Positions 1-54,120 of a DNA stretch of 64,000 nucleotides are shown here, piece by piece; within the stretch, counting starts at the first letter, position 1; each line of letters starts with the position of its first letter. Source of the stretch: an uncultured Gemmatimonadaceae bacterium (lineage in GTDB: Bacteria; Gemmatimonadota; Gemmatimonadetes; Gemmatimonadales; Gemmatimonadaceae); contig CAWHHI010000003.1 of assembly GCA_963829055.1 (NCBI GenBank), positions 1-64,000 of the forward strand, read 5' to 3'. The position numbers and the translations under genes were made by a program. A model generated the notes under the pieces. That model was not told the origin of the DNA, searched no databases, and saw nothing but the letters and a program-made list of their open reading frames with translations.

Positions 1-673
1 GACCAGTCTGTGCGCGGGGGCCTTGTACGGAACGATGGCGAACTTGTCCAGCGATATACCGAACGCGTTGCCCTGCTTCTCGGCAATGCCGATGACGGTG
101 TAGGGCACGCGGCCGATGCGGATCTCGCGTCCAATGGCAGGAAGGTCCGGGAAGAAATGCTTCCGGGCCTCCTCGCCAATGACGACGACAGGAGTGCCGA
201 GCTCGTACTCCTGGGCGGTTGGCAGGCGTCCCTCGGACACGCCCATGTTCTTGATGTCGAACCAGGCGCCGTCGACGCACTGGATGGTCAGGGTACGCGG
301 CTTCGCATACCGCGACTCCACCGACACCGACGCCGCTTCCCTCGACGGACCAGCGCGCGCTGGGCGGGAGGGAGGCGACGACGACGGGAATGTCATCTTC
401 GGTGATACGGGGGCGACTGCGGAGGGCGCGCCACTCGCTCTCGTCCATGTCGCCCATCTGGATGTTCGGCCGGGACCGGACCTCGAAGGAATTCTTGGTG
501 ATGAGCTTTCCGACGAGGTCGTCTTCCACGTAGCGCCCCACGCCATTGATGATCGAGACGATGGCGATGAGGAACATGACGCCGATGGCGACGCCAATGA
601 GGGTGAAGAAACTCTTGAGCTTCTGCACCCGGATCTGGGCCAGGGCGAGCCTGATGGCTTCGAAAAGAGGCAC
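1..673 (-). CDS. MacB/FtsX-type ABC transporter permease, N-terminal part (runs off the left edge; frameshift near 335)
   Basis: Manual translation from GTG 673: MPLFEAIRLALAQIRVQKLKSFFTLIGVAIGVMFLIAIVS..., then ...VVVIGEEARKHFFP...IGRVPYTVIGIAEKQG (MacB periplasmic domain). Confidence 0.8.
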   Translation of the reverse strand, partial: MPLFEAIRLALAQIRVQKLKSFFTLIGVAIGVMFLIAIVSIINGVGRYVEDDLVGKLITKNSFEVRSRPNIQMGDMDESEWRALRSRPRITEDDIPVVVASLPPSARWSVEGSGVGVGGVAVCEAAYPDHPVRRRRLVRHQEHGRVRGTPANRPGVRARHSCRRHWRGGPEAFLPGPSCHWTRDPHRPRALHRHRHCREAGQRVRYIAGQVRHRSVQGPRAQTG

Positions 674-784
674 GGTCGAATGTTGTGGGCGCGGGGTGCG
701 GAAGGATAGTCCGGCGCCCGTTTCGCCGCGGTATACCGTCGGGACACTACCCTACTTCGTCGGCTGGCTGCTTTGTTTCATCCT

Positions 785-889
785 GTCATCCCGAGCGGCA
801 GCGAGGGACCTGCTGTGGCGTCATCGTAGCAAGACCAGCCACGAGGACATCACAATAGGTCCCTCGTCGCTGTTGCTCCTCGGGATGAC
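785..889. repeat. Palindromic REP element, subtype A (GTCATCCCGAG...CTCGGGATGAC), 105 bp
   Basis: Inverted arms visible; its end overlaps the GIY-YIG stop codon; internal spacer is similar to the copy at 54016. Confidence 0.9.
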
Positions 890-1182
890 TAGTCATACCA
901 GTTTGCGGCCAGGTCCCGCCACGCCGGGTTGTCGCGCTCGATGAGTGCGATCTTCTTCTCACGTCGCCAGCCCTTCAGCTCCTTCTCGCGCGCGATCGCG
1001 CCTCGCGCATGACTGGTCGTCTCGAAGAACACCAGTGAGGTGGTTCGATACTTCGCCGAGAAGCCCCTTATCAACTTTGCGCGGTGCTCCCAGATCCGGC
1101 GCACCAGGTTGTTGGTGACACCGATGTACAATCGCCTGGAGTGGCTTGCGAGGATGTAGACATGGTAGACGCGCCGCCGCAT
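889..1182 (-). CDS. Minimal GIY-YIG nuclease (UPF0213/Ssn-like), flanked by REPs
   Basis: 97 aa with VYILAS...LYIGVTNNLVRRIWEH...AIAREKELKGWRREKKIALIERDNPAWRDL. Confidence 0.9.
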   Translation of the reverse strand: MRRRVYHVYILASHSRRLYIGVTNNLVRRIWEHRAKLIRGFSAKYRTTSLVFFETTSHARGAIAREKELKGWRREKKIALIERDNPAWRDLAANWYD

Positions 1183-1310
1183 GCTCGTTCATCCATACTT
1201 GGAGACTGCTGGTATAGTCAGCGGGGCGCGGCGGGATCTGTCATCACAATGGCGCGTGTGAGACCTTTGTGTCTCTCAACGGCACCACGGCGGACCACCA
1301 GAACGGTCGA

Positions 1311-1359
1311 GCAGGTCCCTCGCTGCCGCTCGGGATGACACGTGCGCTCGGGATGACAC
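1311..1359. repeat. REP right arm with a duplicated terminus (GCTCGGGATGACAC x2)
   Basis: 1311-1340 is the reverse complement of 784-813; the terminal 14-mer repeats at 1328 and 1346. Confidence 0.85.
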
Positions 1360-10528: not shown

Positions 10529-13003
10529 ATGTCGCTGACCGCTCAGATCCGCCCGACCCTCCGTCGTCTCGCCCGCGCTCCCGGCTTCACGACGATCTCG
10601 ATTCTCACCCTCGGGCTTGGCATCGCCGGCACGACCGCCGCGTTCAGCGTCGTGAATGCCGTCCTGCTGCGGCCACTGCCCTACCGCGAGCCCGAGCGGC
10701 TCGTGCAACTGTGGCACGCCGCGCCCGGGCTCGGGATGCCGCAGGTCGAGCAGTCCGACGCGTCCTACATCCAGTACCACGACAAGGCGACGCGCTCGTT
10801 CCAGTCCCTCGCCAGCTATCGGACCGAGTCGGCGAACCTCACCGGCGGCCAGGACCCCGAGCGCGTCGCGTCCGCCGCGGTCACCGCGTCGTTCCTTCCC
10901 ACGCTCGGCGTCGTTCCCGCGCTCGGCCGCAACTTCACCGAGGACGAGGACCGGCCCGGCGGCGCCGCGGTCGTCATTCTCTCCAACGCACTCTGGCAGC
11001 GACGGTACGGCGGGGACCGGAACATCATCGGGAAGCCGATCCAGATCGACGGGATCGCCCGAGAAGTCGTCGGCGTCATGCCCGCGACGTTCCACTTTCC
11101 GTACGCGACCACCGAGCTCTGGACGCCGATGGCGATCGACCGCGCGCACCTCAACACCGGCAGCTTCAATCGCAACGCGATCGGGCGGCTTCGGCCAGGC
11201 GTCACGATCAAGGCGGCCGAGGCGGAGATGCAGCCGATTCTCATGCGGTTGCCGGATGACGTGCCCGGCATGATGACGCGCGCCATATTCGAACAGGCGA
11301 AGATCCAGGTCACGCTCCACTCGCTGCGTGACGACGTCATCGGCGACATTCGGCCGATCCTCTTCACCGTGCTCGGCACCGTCGCGTTCGTCCTGCTCAT
11401 CGCCTGCGCGAACGTCGCCAACCTGTTTCTCGTGCGGGCCGAAGCGCGGACGAAGGAAGTGGCGGTGCGCTCCGCGTTAGGTGCGACGCCGCGCGCGATC
11501 GTCAGGCTCTACCTCGGCGAAGGGCTCGTGCTCGCGGCCGCCGGCGCTGCACTCGGCGTCGTGCTGGCGTACGGCGCGCTGAACCTGCTGCTCCGGACCG
11601 CGCCCGAGGGTCTTCCGCGTGCCAGCGAGATCGGCATCGACCTGACGTCGTTAGGCGTCGCCGCCGCCATCGCGGTGATCACCGGCGTGTTCTTCAGCGC
11701 CGTGCCGTTCTTCCGGTCCGGGAAAGCCGAGCTGACGCCCATGCTCCGCGACAGCACGCGCGGATCGACGAGCGGGCGCGAGCGACAGCGTGTGCGCAAC
11801 ACGTTCGTCGTCGCGCAGGTCGCGCTCGCGCTCATCCTGCTCGTGGGCTCCGGGCTGCTCGCGCGATCGTTCCAGCGGATGCGGGCCGTCGACCCGGGGT
11901 TCAAGCCGGCGAACGTGCTGACGCTTCGCCTGTCCATTCCGGAGGCCACGTACCGCACGACGGGTGACATCGCGCGCTTCTACCATCAGCTGACCACTCG
12001 GCTCGCTACGGTGCCCGGCGTACAGTCCGTAGGGACGGTCACAAAACTTCCGCTCTCCGAGGGCGGCGACAATCACAACGGCGCGTGGATCGAAGACCGC
12101 CCGATCACCAAGGACGAGTTGCCGTCGATTCACCTGACGGTGAACGCCTCGCAGGATTACTTCGCATCGATGGGCATTCCCCTCATCGAAGGGCGCACGT
12201 TCCGGGATGATGGAACCGATCGGCCGTCGCACGAGATGATCGTCTCGCGTTCGTTCGCTCGCCAGTATTGGCCTAACGGGAGCGCCATCGGCAAGCGAGT
12301 GAAGAGCGGTGGACCCGAGGCCCCGTGGAGCACGATCGTCGGCGTCGTGGGCGACGTGCACGACGAGGCGCTGACCAAGCCGGCAGAGGAGACCGTCTAC
12401 CAACCGATCGTCACGGTCGTCCAGCCGCAGCCGGGAGCACCGGATTCAATTATTGCCGACAACACGATGTCGCTGACGATCCGGACGTCCGGGGAGGCGA
12501 TGGCAGTCTTCCCGGCGGTGCGGCGGGAGATCTGGGCCATAGATCGCAACCTGCCGCTCGTGAACGTGCGCGCGATGTCGCAGGTGGTCGAATCGGCGAT
12601 GGCGCGCACGACGTTCACGCTGATCATGATCGGCGCGGCGGCGGGCGTGGCGCTGTTGTTAGGCGCCATTGGCATCTACGGCGTGATCAGCTACATGGTC
12701 AGCCTCCGGACGCGCGAGATCGGCGTCCGCATGGCGCTCGGCGCGCAGTCCACGGAGGTACGACGCATGGTGGTGCGTCAGGGACTGGTGCTGGCGGTGA
12801 TCGGCGTCGGCATCGGTCTCGCGGGAGCGCTCGCGCTGTCGCGGCTCATCAGCTCACTGCTCTACGGCATCGCGCCGCACGATCCGCTCACGCTCGGCGT
12901 GGTGACGGTCGGGCTGCTGGCGGTGGCCGCGGTGGCGAGCTGGTTGCCCGCGATGCGGGCGGCGCGGATCGACCCGATCGAGGCGCTGCGAGCCGACGGC
13001 TGA
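10529..13003 (+). CDS. Duplicated (ADOP-type) ABC permease
   Basis: [49 protein letters not shown]. Confidence 0.92.
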
Positions 13004-13004
13004 C

Positions 13005-13118
13005 GTCATTCCGAGCGGAGGCCGAAGGCCGGAGTCGAGGAATCGCGATCATACGGGTAGAGGGCTCTCTACCCTGACGCCAACGATTCCTCGACTCGCT
13101 TCGCTCGCTCGGAATGAC
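13005..13118. repeat. Palindromic REP element, subtype B (GTCATTCCGAGC...GAGTCGAGGAATCG)
   Basis: Inverted arms with inner hairpin TAGAGGGCTCTCTA; closely similar to 34903-35021. Confidence 0.9.
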
Positions 13119-14493: not shown

Positions 14494-14550
14494 GTCATTC
14501 CGAGCGCAGCCGCCTTCGCTCCGCTCGGAATACCGGCCGCTCGGAATGAC
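14494..14550. repeat. Short/collapsed REP element
   Basis: GTCATTCCGAGCG...CCGCTCGGAAT...CCGCTCGGAATGAC. Confidence 0.8.
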
Positions 14551-27651: not shown

Positions 27652-28608
27652 ATGACTGACTTCACGCTCAACGTTCGTGCGGCGCTCATCGCCGACCGCA
27701 TGGCTTTTCACGCCGCCGAGTACGGCGTCGCGGTGCATACGCTGAGCTCGGGCGCACGCGTCATCGATGCGGGAGTCGCTGCGCCGGGAGGCCTCGCGGC
27801 TGGCCAGGCGATGGCTCACGCGTGCATGGGTGGCCTCGGGCATACGTCGTTCACGCCGCTATCGATAGGCGAGGACTCGTACCAGGGCGTGCAGGTCTGG
27901 ACCGATCACCCGGCCATCGCCTGCATGGCCTCGCAATACGCCGGCTGGGCCATTCACGTCGGCGAATTTTTCGCGATGGGCTCCGGGCCGCTTCGAGCCA
28001 TCGCTCGCGTGGAGCAGGCGCTGTTCGACAAACTCGCGTACACGGAGAAGACGGATCGCGGCGTGCTCGTGCTGGAGGGGAGGACGCTCCCGACGGACGA
28101 CATCGCCAACTGGGTGAGCGAGCGTGCCGGCATCGCGCCGTCAGCGCTCACGTTCATTGTCGCGCCCACTGCAAGCATCGCGGGCGGCATTCAGATCGCC
28201 GCCCGCATCCTGGAGACCGGGCTGCACAAGATGGATGCGCTGGGCTTCGACGTTAGGCAGGTGACGAGTGCGGTCGGCACCACCCCGGTGCCACCGGTCG
28301 CGAAGAACGACCTCCGCGCCATCGGCCGCACGAACGACTGCATCCTGTACGGCGGTCAGGCGCGATACACCGTTCGTGCCGACGACGCGACGCTCGAGAC
28401 GCTCGCGCACCAGCTTCCGTCGTCGGCGTCCGCTGACTACGGCACGCCGTTCTACGAGATCTTCGAGCGGTACGATCGCGACTTCTACAAGATCGACAAG
28501 CTGCTCTTCAGTCCCGCCGAGGTGTGGCTGACGAGCGCGACGAGCGGGCGCACGTTTCACGCGGGCCGGCTCGAGCCGACGGTGCTGCGCGCGTCGCTGT
28601 TCGGCTGA
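27652..28608 (+). CDS. mch: Methenyl-H4MPT cyclohydrolase
   Basis: ACMASQYAGW, MGSGP, ETGLHK, GRTNDCILYGG, FYKIDKLLFSPA. Confidence 0.95.
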   Translation: MTDFTLNVRAALIADRMAFHAAEYGVAVHTLSSGARVIDAGVAAPGGLAAGQAMAHACMGGLGHTSFTPLSIGEDSYQGVQVWTDHPAIACMASQYAGWAIHVGEFFAMGSGPLRAIARVEQALFDKLAYTEKTDRGVLVLEGRTLPTDDIANWVSERAGIAPSALTFIVAPTASIAGGIQIAARILETGLHKMDALGFDVRQVTSAVGTTPVPPVAKNDLRAIGRTNDCILYGGQARYTVRADDATLETLAHQLPSSASADYGTPFYEIFERYDRDFYKIDKLLFSPAEVWLTSATSGRTFHAGRLEPTVLRASLFG

Positions 28609-29327
28609 TGACCGCTGATCGACTGTCGCCTGGCGAGGTACTGCAGACCGCGCGACTGCTCCTGCGGCCGTGGCGCGATGGCGACCTCGAACCGTTTGCC
28701 GCGCTGAATAGCGATCCGGTTGTGATGGAGCACATGCCGACAATGCTCGACCGCTCGGCCAGCGACGCGTTGGTTGCGCGCATCCGAACGCATTTCGACC
28801 AGCACGGATTCGGGCTCTGGGCGATCGAAGTACCGGGCATTGCGGACTTCGTTGGCTACGTGGGACTCCTGGTGCCGCGCTTCACAGCGGCGTTCACGCC
28901 GTGCGTCGAGGTGGGATGGCGACTTGCGCGCGAGCATTGGGGTCGAGGGTACGCGACGGAGGGCGCGCGTGCGGCGGTGTCGTTCGGGTTTCTGTCGGCT
29001 GGCCTGGACGAGATCGTGTCGTTCACCGTGCCGGCGAACACGCGTTCCGTCGCAGTGATGGAGCGACTCGGTATGACCCACGACCCGTCGGATGACTTCG
29101 ACCACCCGTCGCTGCCTGCAGGTCATAGACTTTCACGTCACGTCCTCTACCGCCTCTCGCGGCCGGCGAGCGCGTTGTCATCCCGAGCGGAGCGTTGTCA
29201 TTCCGAGCGAGCGGCAGCGAGGGATCTCGTGAGGTGCTCGTGGCAGGACGTGGCCCCTGCGTATCGGGACGATCGCCGATTCCTCGACTCGCTGCCGCTC
29301 GGGATGACACTGTCAATGATCGCCTAA
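28608..29327 (+). CDS. RimJ/RimL-type GNAT acetyltransferase with REP-derived C-terminal extension
   Basis: TARLLLRPWR, VEVGWRL..WGRGYATEGA, HVLYRL; the last ~50 codons run through a REP. Confidence 0.88.
   Translation: MTADRLSPGEVLQTARLLLRPWRDGDLEPFAALNSDPVVMEHMPTMLDRSASDALVARIRTHFDQHGFGLWAIEVPGIADFVGYVGLLVPRFTAAFTPCVEVGWRLAREHWGRGYATEGARAAVSFGFLSAGLDEIVSFTVPANTRSVAVMERLGMTHDPSDDFDHPSLPAGHRLSRHVLYRLSRPASALSSRAERCHSERAAARDLVRCSWQDVAPAYRDDRRFLDSLPLGMTLSMIA
29177..29308. repeat. REP element (A/B hybrid, duplicated head) inside the GNAT 3' end
   Basis: GTCATCCCGAGCG at 29177 and GTCATTCCGAGCG at 29197; ends GCTCGGGATGAC. Confidence 0.88.
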
Positions 29328-34902: not shown

Positions 34903-35021
34903 GTCATTCCGAGCGGAGGCCCGCAGGCGGAGTCGAGGAATCGCGATTGTCCGCGATAGAGGGCCCTCTATCGGGACGATCGCGATTCCTCGACTCGCCT
35001 TCGGCCTCCGCTCGGAATGAC
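34903..35021. repeat. Palindromic REP element, subtype B, 119 bp
   Basis: Near-perfect palindrome GTCATTCCGAGCGGAGGCC...GGCCTCCGCTCGGAATGAC. Confidence 0.92.
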
Positions 35022-38287: not shown

Positions 38288-39328
38288 GTGAGCGGCGACA
38301 CCGTCACCGTCGAGGCTCCGGCGCGCCTGCACTTCGGACTGCTGGACCTCCGCGGCGCGTTAGGGAGGCGCTTCGGTGGCATCGGTGCACCGGCACCCGA
38401 GGTCAGCGCGCGCGTTTCCGTGTCGCTCGCGGATGACGTCGAAGCCGAGGGGCCGGACGCCGGCCGCGCGGTGGAGTTTGCGCGCCGGTTTCTGACGCAC
38501 CACGCGCTCGCCGGCGGTGCTCACGTCCAGGTCGAGCGAGCCATCCCACCACATTCGGGGCTCGGATCCGGAACGCAGCTCGCGTTGTCGATCGCGCGCG
38601 CGTTGGCCGATCTGCATGACGTGAGGGCAACACCACCGGACCTGGCGCGAGCCGTCGGACGCGCGAAGCGATCGGCGGTAGGCACGTGGACGTTCGCCGG
38701 TGGCGGGTTCGTGGTCGAGGGTGGGCGACGCATGGATCAGAACGACGACACCGGCCCGCTGCTCGCGCGCCTCGCGTTTCCGACCGCCTGGCGTTGTGTC
38801 GTAGCGGTACCGAAAGCGCAACCCGGTGTCAGCGGTGCCGCGGAGGCTGAGGCGTTCGCGTCACTGCCATTGCCGGCCGAGCGTGAGGTGGAGCGCGTGT
38901 CGCATCTCGTGCTCATGGCCATGTTGCCCGCGCTCGCCGACGGTGACCTCTCGACATTCGGCGCGGCGCTCACCGAGGTGCAGGAGATCAACGGACGCTG
39001 GTTCTCTCACGCGCAGGGCGGCACGTTCGCGCCGGGCGCGTCGAGCGCCCTCGTGACGCGCATGCGCGAGTGGGGCGCGGCCGGCGTTGGCCAGAGCTCG
39101 TGGGGACCCGCGGTGTACGCGATCGTCGACGGCGATGACGCGGCGCACGACCTCTCGCGCCGCGTGCGTGACGCGGTGGGCGACGGCGGCGCGGTCTACA
39201 CGGGTGCGTTTCCTCCGCATGGCGCGACGTGTCGTCCCGAGCGCAGCAGCCGTCATCCCGGGCGCCAGGGATTGTCATCCCGAGCGCAGCGAAGCGACAG
39301 CGAGGGATCTTCCGTGAAGTACCCATAG
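38288..39328 (+). CDS. mptG: Beta-ribofuranosylaminobenzene 5'-phosphate synthase (GHMP kinase fold)
   Basis: PARLHFGLLD, HSGLGSGTQLAL, GGFVVEGG, GQSSWGP; tail is REP-derived. Confidence 0.92.
   Translation: MSGDTVTVEAPARLHFGLLDLRGALGRRFGGIGAPAPEVSARVSVSLADDVEAEGPDAGRAVEFARRFLTHHALAGGAHVQVERAIPPHSGLGSGTQLALSIARALADLHDVRATPPDLARAVGRAKRSAVGTWTFAGGGFVVEGGRRMDQNDDTGPLLARLAFPTAWRCVVAVPKAQPGVSGAAEAEAFASLPLPAEREVERVSHLVLMAMLPALADGDLSTFGAALTEVQEINGRWFSHAQGGTFAPGASSALVTRMREWGAAGVGQSSWGPAVYAIVDGDDAAHDLSRRVRDAVGDGGAVYTGAFPPHGATCRPERSSRHPGRQGLSSRAQRSDSEGSSVKYP
39231..39310. repeat. Three tandem REP heads plus a left arm inside the mptG 3' end
   Basis: GTCGTCCCGAGCG (39231), GTCATCCCGGGCG (39252), GTCATCCCGAGCG...GCGAGGGATCT (39274). 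Confidence 0.8.
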
Positions 39329-54015: not shown

Positions 54016-54120
54016 GTCATCCCGAGGAGCGCCCGCGACGAGGGATCTTGCTCGATGTCATCGTAGCCGGTCCAGCCACGAATACTTCACAGGAGATCCC
54101 TCGCTGCCGCTCGGGATGAC
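54016..54120. repeat. Palindromic REP element, subtype A, 105 bp
   Basis: GTCATCCCGAG...CTCGGGATGAC; spacer similar to the 785-889 copy. Confidence 0.9.

Follow-up and report, generated by a model that had tools for sequence, protein, structure and literature searches.

The nuclease locus

Between positions 785 and 1357 of the window (the whole 64,000-nucleotide stretch of DNA that was analysed) lies a small nuclease gene enclosed by hairpin elements.

785..810, + strand: hairpin unit, outer arm, with a GTC tag, a stem containing a tandem G·A mismatch, and a closing C (motif, fold)
858..889, − strand: longer hairpin unit that starts at the last base of the stop codon and, with 785-810, makes up the intact family-A doublet 785-889
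889..1182, − strand: stand-alone GIY-YIG nuclease gene, 97 aa, classed as Ssn-like and of the K/R-76 subtype (PF01541, alignment, fold model)
about 1237..1262, + strand: eroded inner arm of an upstream doublet (aligned to 785-889 and 54016-54120; weak fold)
1314..1339, − strand: outer arm on the upstream side of the gene, a full hairpin unit
1340..1357, − strand: truncated 13-nt copy with a 5-nt linker

PF01541, the GIY-YIG domain, is the sole profile matched by the 97-aa open reading frame (E 8.4e-12), making the product a single-domain protein of fewer than 150 aa and bearing out the original prediction of a GIY-YIG gene. It is the only stand-alone PF01541 gene in the 7.78-Mb genome, which is 86% complete; the two further PF01541 matches sit within longer open frames of 447 and 388 aa. 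A homologue from N. gonorrhoeae, retrieved in a search of a plasmid collection, has nine NTS copies within its 1.9-kb locus and is 51% identical to the 97-aa protein over 91 aa (E 3e-29 pairwise, 2e-19 database-wide); the start codon in that record is out of frame with the homologue, and the open frame was compared as given. With this homologue in place of N. meningitidis SsnA, the comparison lies inside the Ssn BLAST cutoffs of E < 1e-10 and at least 75% of SsnA length. Five residues are conserved in the 97-aa protein, Y9, Y19, R29, H33, and E66. Among them, Y9, Y19, and E66 are invariant among 43 aligned proteins and align with Y6, Y17, and E64 of SsnA, mutation of which is reported to abolish cutting (PMC11893778).

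Folding the protein from its single sequence gave a poor model and folding from the 43-sequence input a good one (pLDDT 90.9), whose best PDB matches, with modest scores, are UPF0213 and Slx1 GIY-YIG domains; a PDB search by sequence returned marginal matches only. Searches of NCBIfam, PHROGs, and PADLOC with the locus returned nothing, the nuclease has no match in 50,697 phage records and two marginal matches in viral contigs, and no match to a sigma-70 promoter was seen upstream of the gene. Composition gives no support for a recent foreign origin (GC3 0.83 versus 0.82), and none of the matches listed from the GTDB and metagenome scans is a relative of the cassette at another locus with more than 66% identity.

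The gene is present on contigs of all four metagenome runs, which come from four studies. Ten of the 14 listed substitutions between strains are synonymous, the indels keep the overall frame, and the catalytic residues are untouched. At 1003-1015, a compensated 1-nt deletion and insertion together with three substitutions are common to all four runs, with the result that residues 57-60 differ from those in the window; this is either a strain difference or an assembly error. Judged by its sequence, the 97-aa gene is a real, well-formed member of the Ssn nuclease-hairpin system.

At 785-889, two hairpin units face each other across a 47-bp spacer and together form an imperfect palindrome of 105 bp. 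Its predicted fold has an energy of −34.4 kcal/mol (z −6.7), and none of 200 shuffles was equally stable. It had been described as a complete 105-bp palindrome overlapping the stop codon. The length stands, and so does the overlap, which amounts to a single base: the last letter of TAG, at 889, is also the first of GTCAT. The palindrome is not perfect. The REP arm claimed upstream is also there, with more than had been noticed: the full unit at 1314-1339, the 13-nt copy, and the arm at about 1237-1262 are the remains of a decayed doublet. Oriented GTC-tagged hairpins flank the gene on both sides, and its place is between two doublets rather than at the tip of one. Over 31 nt the two outer arms (784-814 and, inverted, 1310-1340) are identical, and this 31-mer occurs only twice in the genome; a likeness of this level is found in 1.5% of random pairs among 188 similar units. 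Folded alone in ViennaRNA, one unit has little stability (−4.0 kcal/mol, z 0.4). Sheared G·A pairs are stable in DNA, and the folding program may understate the stability of a stem with G·A mismatches.

The repeat family

Genome-wide, the core motif GTCATYCCGAGC is found 1008 times, compared with 6.0 copies expected from a first-order model and 13.6 from a fifth-order model, a count that answers the proposal to look for the repeat across the genome. Each unit consists of the GTC tag, the stem ATYCC, the tandem G·A mismatch, G-C pairs, a variable loop, a return arm, and a closing C, and position −1 of the tag is T or C in 90% of units. The return arm is present in 707 of the 1008 copies. The pair at stem position 6 is kept in 699 of these 707, as T-A in 437 and C-G in 262; since two subfamilies make up much of this count, the pairs do not represent 699 independent events. 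The base pairing of the repeat is backed by covariation.

The 712 full units yield 256 head-to-head doublets and 3 tail-to-tail neighbors. Doublets measure 99-143 bp (5th to 95th percentile), and two spacer families, of 144 and 94 members, take in 238 of the 256. Of 334 composite doublets, 108 are no more than 10 nt from a stop codon, as placed by a crude ORF caller whose calls cover 64% of the genome. Convergent gaps contain 98 doublets and divergent gaps 34, against similar background numbers (610 and 645). An extra truncated copy, most often of 13 nt and followed by a linker most often of 4-5 nt, is borne by 238 ends. It is speculation that this linker length, which resembles the offset of the SsnA cut, is connected with it. 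Simple tandem duplication was considered as a source of the truncated copies and rejected: the similarity of their upstream flanks is slight (z 3-4 at three of eight positions) and does not extend to the far flank.

Target-site duplications of 2-8 bp showed no clear excess over shuffles in the 334 doublets at four end offsets, and flank fold-back was seen in none of them. The near-identical doublet matches listed include no exact whole-element pair. With neither a target-site duplication or fixed target nor an exact pair among those matches, no recent burst of transposition is visible. Rfam contains no match for the repeat. The octamer GCCTAACG, which has 5002 copies in the genome, is not enriched near repeat elements (95 of 558 elements within 100 bp versus 100 at random).

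Within the window, GTCATYCCGAGC occurs 20 times with at most one mismatch, versus 1.51 expected. Six gene-less sites had been named in the original prediction, and all six carry the motif:

13005..13118, no strand: gene-less family-B doublet (exact motif; missing from the collinear site of G003 and G004)
14494..14550, no strand: short rearranged gene-less element (exact motif; absent in G001, G003, and G004)
29177..29308, no strand: gene-less doublet with an extra truncated copy (exact motif; absent, with the adjoining GNAT gene, in G001, G002, and G004)
34903..35021, no strand: gene-less family-B doublet (exact motif; absent in G005)
39231..39309, + strand: single-ended tandem of two truncated copies and one full unit (one mismatch; absent in G001, G003, G004, and G005)
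54016..54120, no strand: gene-less family-A doublet with the spacer type of 785-889 (one mismatch; absent in G005)

Some elements lie within or near coding sequence. The GNAT acetyltransferase ORF at 28608-29327 runs in frame through the 29177-29308 doublet, and the insert of GNAT gene plus doublet that is missing from G001, G002, and G004 ends beside a GCCTAACG word. Three full doublets in this genome lie inside long called ORFs (C4:577021, C6:586387, and C20:263648) and may be translated inserts. Behind the orthologue of the gene at window position 12990, the GTCAT doublet is replaced in G001 (L101) and G005 (L110) by other palindromes with short tandem units.

Association of the gene with a hairpin subtype

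In GTDB genomes, an exact copy of the 12-mer GTCATYCYGAGC lies within 400 bp of the gene at 38 of 80 homologue loci, spread over many phyla, versus 1 of 70 control windows. With a broader pattern, the figures are 56 of 80 versus 1 of 69. The published SRM pattern was found at 4 of the same 80 loci. Typing of the hairpins used 217 loci (223 minus 6 duplicates; 210 distinct proteins), a set biased to close relatives of the query. A typed hairpin is present in 174 of these, with a mismatch stem in 155 and a fully paired stem in 19; 43 loci have neither. The corresponding numbers in control windows are 7 and 1 of 125.

The hairpin type goes together with residue 76 of the nuclease, which is Lys or Arg in all 155 mismatch-stem loci and Trp in all 19 paired-stem loci. 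Ten more loci from plasmid records comprise two with Lys and a mismatch stem, four with Trp and a paired stem, and four with Trp and no hairpin. In a tree, the Trp proteins fall into one clade with support of 97 and a small group with weak support, and this clustering means that the Trp/Lys split marks a subfamily and amounts to one or two evolutionary events. The tree does not prove that residue 76 is a determinant of specificity. In the same tree a named Gemmatimonadales homologue groups with genomes of that order, which suggests that the host is probably a Gemmatimonadota.

The published SRM pattern misses the repeat described here because the stem has a tandem G·A mismatch and the loop can be extended. 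None of the 1008 repeat cores matches the pattern exactly and 43 match with one substitution; in the whole genome the pattern has 65 matches versus about 78-91 in simulated sequence. As the pattern is unmatched, the repeat is filed as an SRM-like variant, not as SRM. Two organisms illustrate the point. A table in PMC11893778 lists Terracidiphilus gabretensis and Spirosoma oryzicola as cd10448-positive and gene-positive and as unenriched for the motif; the homologues in both are of the Lys type, and mismatch hairpins adjoin their genes. Every substrate in the oligonucleotide table of the same paper has a fully paired stem.

The locus is thus a variant of the published Ssn system, belonging to a subtype that the published motif misses. 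The claim of an Ssn-like nuclease with a cognate hairpin appears well supported by the sequence, the catalytic residues, and the consistent association between homologues and repeat. A literature search that mostly covered sources outside subscription journals found no published account of the mismatch-stem subtype, the Trp/Lys split, or doublets equivalent to the cassette minus its gene, although figures or supplements of the Ssn paper could show such variants.

Gene and repeat in relatives

The seven congeners compared include the genome of the window (G000). The nuclease gene is found in two of them, G000, with 1020 motif copies, and G005, with 474; the two genes are at different loci and 57% identical. 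The five congeners without the gene, in which neither protein nor PF01541 searches found it, have 110-295 motif copies and are 77-92% complete. Of 201 genomes in the family, 24 have the gene: 10 of the 26 that are repeat-rich (at least 10 units) versus 14 of the 175 that are repeat-poor, an odds ratio of 7.2 among kin that are not independent. G056, G154, and G013 enter these counts solely as gene-negative, repeat-poor rows. In the 16 repeat-rich family genomes without a detected gene, five of which were also negative when rechecked by PF01541 search, the gene may have been lost or may have dropped out of fragmented assemblies. Some genomes of a sister family hold up to five copies of the gene.

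In the slot of the nuclease gene, G002 and G005 have a globin gene and no repeat, and the nuclease gene of G005 lies elsewhere. Comparison of window 673-1352 with G002:C140, G005:C267, and G001:C255 reveals a swap slot behind a MacB-type permease gene; the occupant in G001:C255 is, by eye, what we take to be an amino-acid racemase gene.

All six named gene-less sites in the window are empty at the collinear position in at least one congener, most cleanly site 13005 in G003 and G004. Within the species, the cassette itself is in place in all four related metagenome runs, with no empty-site contig seen in them. Joints across the cassette with short sides (22-28 nt) turned out to be other repeat copies and were rejected as empty sites. 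One metagenome contig is 18 letters shorter at the cassette, the length expected if the truncated outer copy had been lost.

Both flanks of 14 G000 doublets could be matched in 0.73 of G005's 7.5 Mb, where 8 of the sites are occupied and 6 empty. In the reverse comparison of 12 G005 doublets in G000, 7 sites are occupied and 5 empty. Background occupancy is 269 of 2617 gaps, and the occupied share is inflated because many of the compared stretches were picked around known repeat matches. Orthologous sites in the two genomes can hold different repeat subfamilies (G000 C13:41056 versus L163 and C17 versus L165), suggesting replacement or repeated insertion at one site.

At two places in the window, 1353-1358 and 39229-39236, the tag of the element coincides with a similar word that already exists in the empty orthologues. 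The first word is the start codon of a BTAD gene and the second a gene's 3′ end. The plus-strand ATG at 1353, within the truncated copy, opens a frame that aligns with the beginning of the congeners' BTAD-domain gene. These coincidences hint at insertion directed by the tag to a GTCAT-like word at 1357 and 39231, in a setting where the intergenic DNA of congeners is too diverged for comparison.

Descent of the doublets

The clearest link between cassette and doublets comes from G005, where the sequence just inside each cassette arm equals half of the spacer in the genome's own gene-less doublets (19 examined). Because the arm-inner sequences are the spacer halves, a G005 doublet corresponds to the cassette minus its gene, with the gene splitting the spacer at its tip. 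For 11 of 13 cassette arms, from seven cassettes in six genomes, the best match is among the doublet spacers of the same genome (225, 19, 7, 3, 6, and 8 doublets sampled per genome). When G000, whose arms are themselves parts of doublets, is left out, this holds for 9 of 11 arms. No other layout is as frequent as arms that point inward around the gene (49 of 142). In 39 loci of this kind, the two arms have 8.9 of their inner 14 nt in common, versus 5.0 after shuffling, and none of 1000 shuffles reached that level. By eye, the family-B spacer of G000 resembles the cassette ends of G005; the present G000 gene adjoins family A.

As in IS/MITE pairs, the gene-less copies have the same ends as the element that carries the gene, a likeness that fits either direction of descent. 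The match between arms and spacers would equally result from gene conversion or from a gene captured at the tip of a hairpin. Descent of the doublets from the cassette, rather than capture of the gene into a doublet, seems slightly the better bet. The dispersed doublets are best described as likely derivatives of the cassette, with support that is new and indirect.

Mechanism and alternatives

The best overall explanation, to which we give an even chance, combines Ssn-type cutting, cassette-derived doublets, and slow spread initiated by the cut. While DNA is being replicated, repaired, or taken up, the SsnA-group GIY-YIG protein would bind the mismatch-stem GTCAT hairpin in its single-stranded form and cut some 5 nt to the 5′ side of the GTC tag. 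Predicted cuts lie at 779/780 on the plus strand and at 895/894, 1345/1344, and 1363/1362 on the minus strand. The gene-less doublets of about 110 bp would be non-autonomous derivatives of the cassette, and the cut would start their slow spread. GIY-YIG enzymes hydrolyse DNA and have no known strand-transfer or joining step; joining would presumably be done by host repair enzymes.

The biochemical part of this proposal borrows from the Neisseria enzyme. SsnA is reported to act on one strand, in ssDNA only, and to free a 20-nt fragment from an oligonucleotide in which the tag G is base 26 (PMC11893778), so that its cut falls 5 nt 5′ of the tag. By analogy, strand-specific binding and cutting of the mismatch hairpin in ssDNA is highly probable for the protein described here. 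Fold-back of a whole doublet (−34 kcal/mol) would pair the GTC tag, which SsnA is said to need (PMC11893778). That new copies require the nuclease, through copying that is slow, initiated by a cut, and completed by repair, we place a little below an even chance. The original interpretation holds in part. Its claim that the nuclease mobilises or maintains the gene-less copies has support that is real, if indirect, from the cassette-minus-gene doublets of relatives, the empty congener sites, and the lack of a RAYT with the GTCAT-family repeat. The claim is unproven, and no gene was found in 16 of 26 repeat-rich family genomes.

A domesticated form of ssDNA restriction, as in Neisseria, has been weighed as an alternative. 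The enzyme would cut incoming or recombining ssDNA at the repeats and so tune gene exchange, and the repeats would spread without it, by recombination or gene conversion. Restriction of ssDNA is the only in vivo role described for the Ssn family in PMC11893778, and congeners without the gene still keep their repeats. The genome carries ComEC and DprA as well, but these match in 10 and 11 of 14 control genomes and therefore say little. Patchy occurrence of the gene (24 of 201 family genomes), in differing places in G000 and G005, is unlike a settled host function, and the mirroring of cassette arms by doublet spacers would be left unexplained. We regard this reading as unlikely to be the main account, although it can coexist with cut-initiated spread. 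It is a good deal less probable that the repeats act mainly as RNA, forming hairpins in transcripts that stabilise mRNA or terminate transcription and are selectively maintained behind genes, and that the nuclease is a lodger that recognises them. The 108 doublets close to stop codons and the convergent excess described above are what it would expect, as is the occupation of about half of the tested orthologous sites in both G000 and G005; however, selection against insertions elsewhere also yields a location behind stop codons, Rfam has no match, and neither the invariant unpaired GTC tag nor the tie between hairpin type and residue 76 is explained.

Movement of the doublets by a RAYT or another transposase or recombinase, with the GIY-YIG gene captured between two copies, is the most doubtful of the readings and in our judgment very improbable. 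The doublets are REPIN-like in size and layout, and the genome, which is only 86% complete, has one PF01797 gene. That gene, however, has its own unrelated terminal repeats and no GTCAT-family copy in its 3.3-kb locus, no IS110 was found in the genome, CGTC-type repeats are reported never to flank tyrosine transposase genes (PMC3733652), and homologues over many phyla retain the hairpin beside the nuclease gene. The suggestion that no classical transposase is involved agrees with these observations, as no RAYT carrying the GTCAT-family repeat was found.

Beyond spread begun by Ssn-type cutting at this locus, a bolder generalisation is that the mobilisers so far missing for CGTC-type repeats would be Ssn nucleases, which would form a second, RAYT-independent REPIN system. 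The 97-aa enzyme would nick ssDNA beside the G·A hairpin and seed doublets from its own cassette ends, and a large K/R-76 subfamily would read mismatch stems, overlooked by the published motif, with residue 76 as the specificity switch. We advance this only tentatively, as something nearer to one chance in three than to an even one.

Relation to known systems

SsnA was described in 2025 as a cutter of single-stranded DNA (PMC11893778), and the Ssn family (cd10448) with its NTS and Ssn-related motifs was presented by Chenal et al. (PMC11893778). The present locus shares with it a single-domain GIY-YIG protein of about 95 aa that is about 50% identical to the Neisseria homologue and keeps the catalytic Tyr, Tyr, and Glu, a gene bracketed by oriented, GTC-tagged, C-closed hairpins, and hundreds of intergenic copies. 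It differs in that the stem is broken by a tandem G·A mismatch and the loop is extendable, in having Lys where the Neisseria type has Trp, and in repeats that occur for the most part as head-to-head doublets, whose spacers belong to two conserved families. The discussion in PMC11893778 raises, as a hypothesis, NTS-ssnA-NTS as a domesticated mobile element behind repeat expansion. In the available text of bioRxiv 10.64898/2026.09.22.753630, SsnA repeats serve as a benchmark only.

CGTC-tagged REPs, for which Di Nocera et al. in 2013 reported finding no dedicated transposase (PMC3733652), resemble the present repeat as described there in the terminal (T/C)GTC tag, the A-T pairs that open the stem, the dominance of head-to-head and rarity of tail-to-tail pairs, the location behind genes, and the lack of a flanked RAYT. 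The families described have an uninterrupted stem of 8-9 bp and a loop of 4-5 nt, whereas the present units have the G·A mismatch, variable loops, and a GIY-YIG gene as their partner.

REPIN-RAYT systems, in the description of bioRxiv 10.1101/2021.07.10.451892, are similar in their extragenic doublets of about 100 bp made of inverted hairpins, diverse populations that turn over slowly, a partner gene in single copy with the repeat on either side, and higher repeat numbers where the gene is present. Their partner is an HUH tyrosine transposase, in contrast to the GIY-YIG hydrolase here, and RAYTs are given as vertically inherited, whereas the GIY-YIG partner is patchy, at varied loci in congeners, and present in up to five copies. 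No RAYT is flanked by the present repeat, and its partner gene has no fixed, vertically inherited locus.

As the Ssn system is already published, the locus is no novelty in itself. A common subtype escapes the published motif, however, which enlarges the set of candidate site-specific ssDNA cutters and the specificities to be expected among them, and the difference at residue 76 offers a one-residue swap as a test of specificity. The cassette-minus-gene doublets make the question of what copies CGTC-type repeats directly testable. If a GIY-YIG hydrolase does drive repeat spread, bacterial DNA would have a new way of becoming mobile.

Several loci met in the course of the comparisons have features of their own. 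The RAYT-like gene L001 (G000:C20:33520-36846) is bracketed by short, iterated terminal repeats of the AGTCTGACTC type that are unrelated to the GTCAT family. On a Planktothrix plasmid (L311), a Lys-type homologue and mismatch hairpins lie within a DISARM/MmeI defence locus. Three other loci (L011, L126, and L132) hold regular tandem arrays of the unit with periods of about 107, 36, and 43 bp, which could be mistaken for CRISPR arrays.
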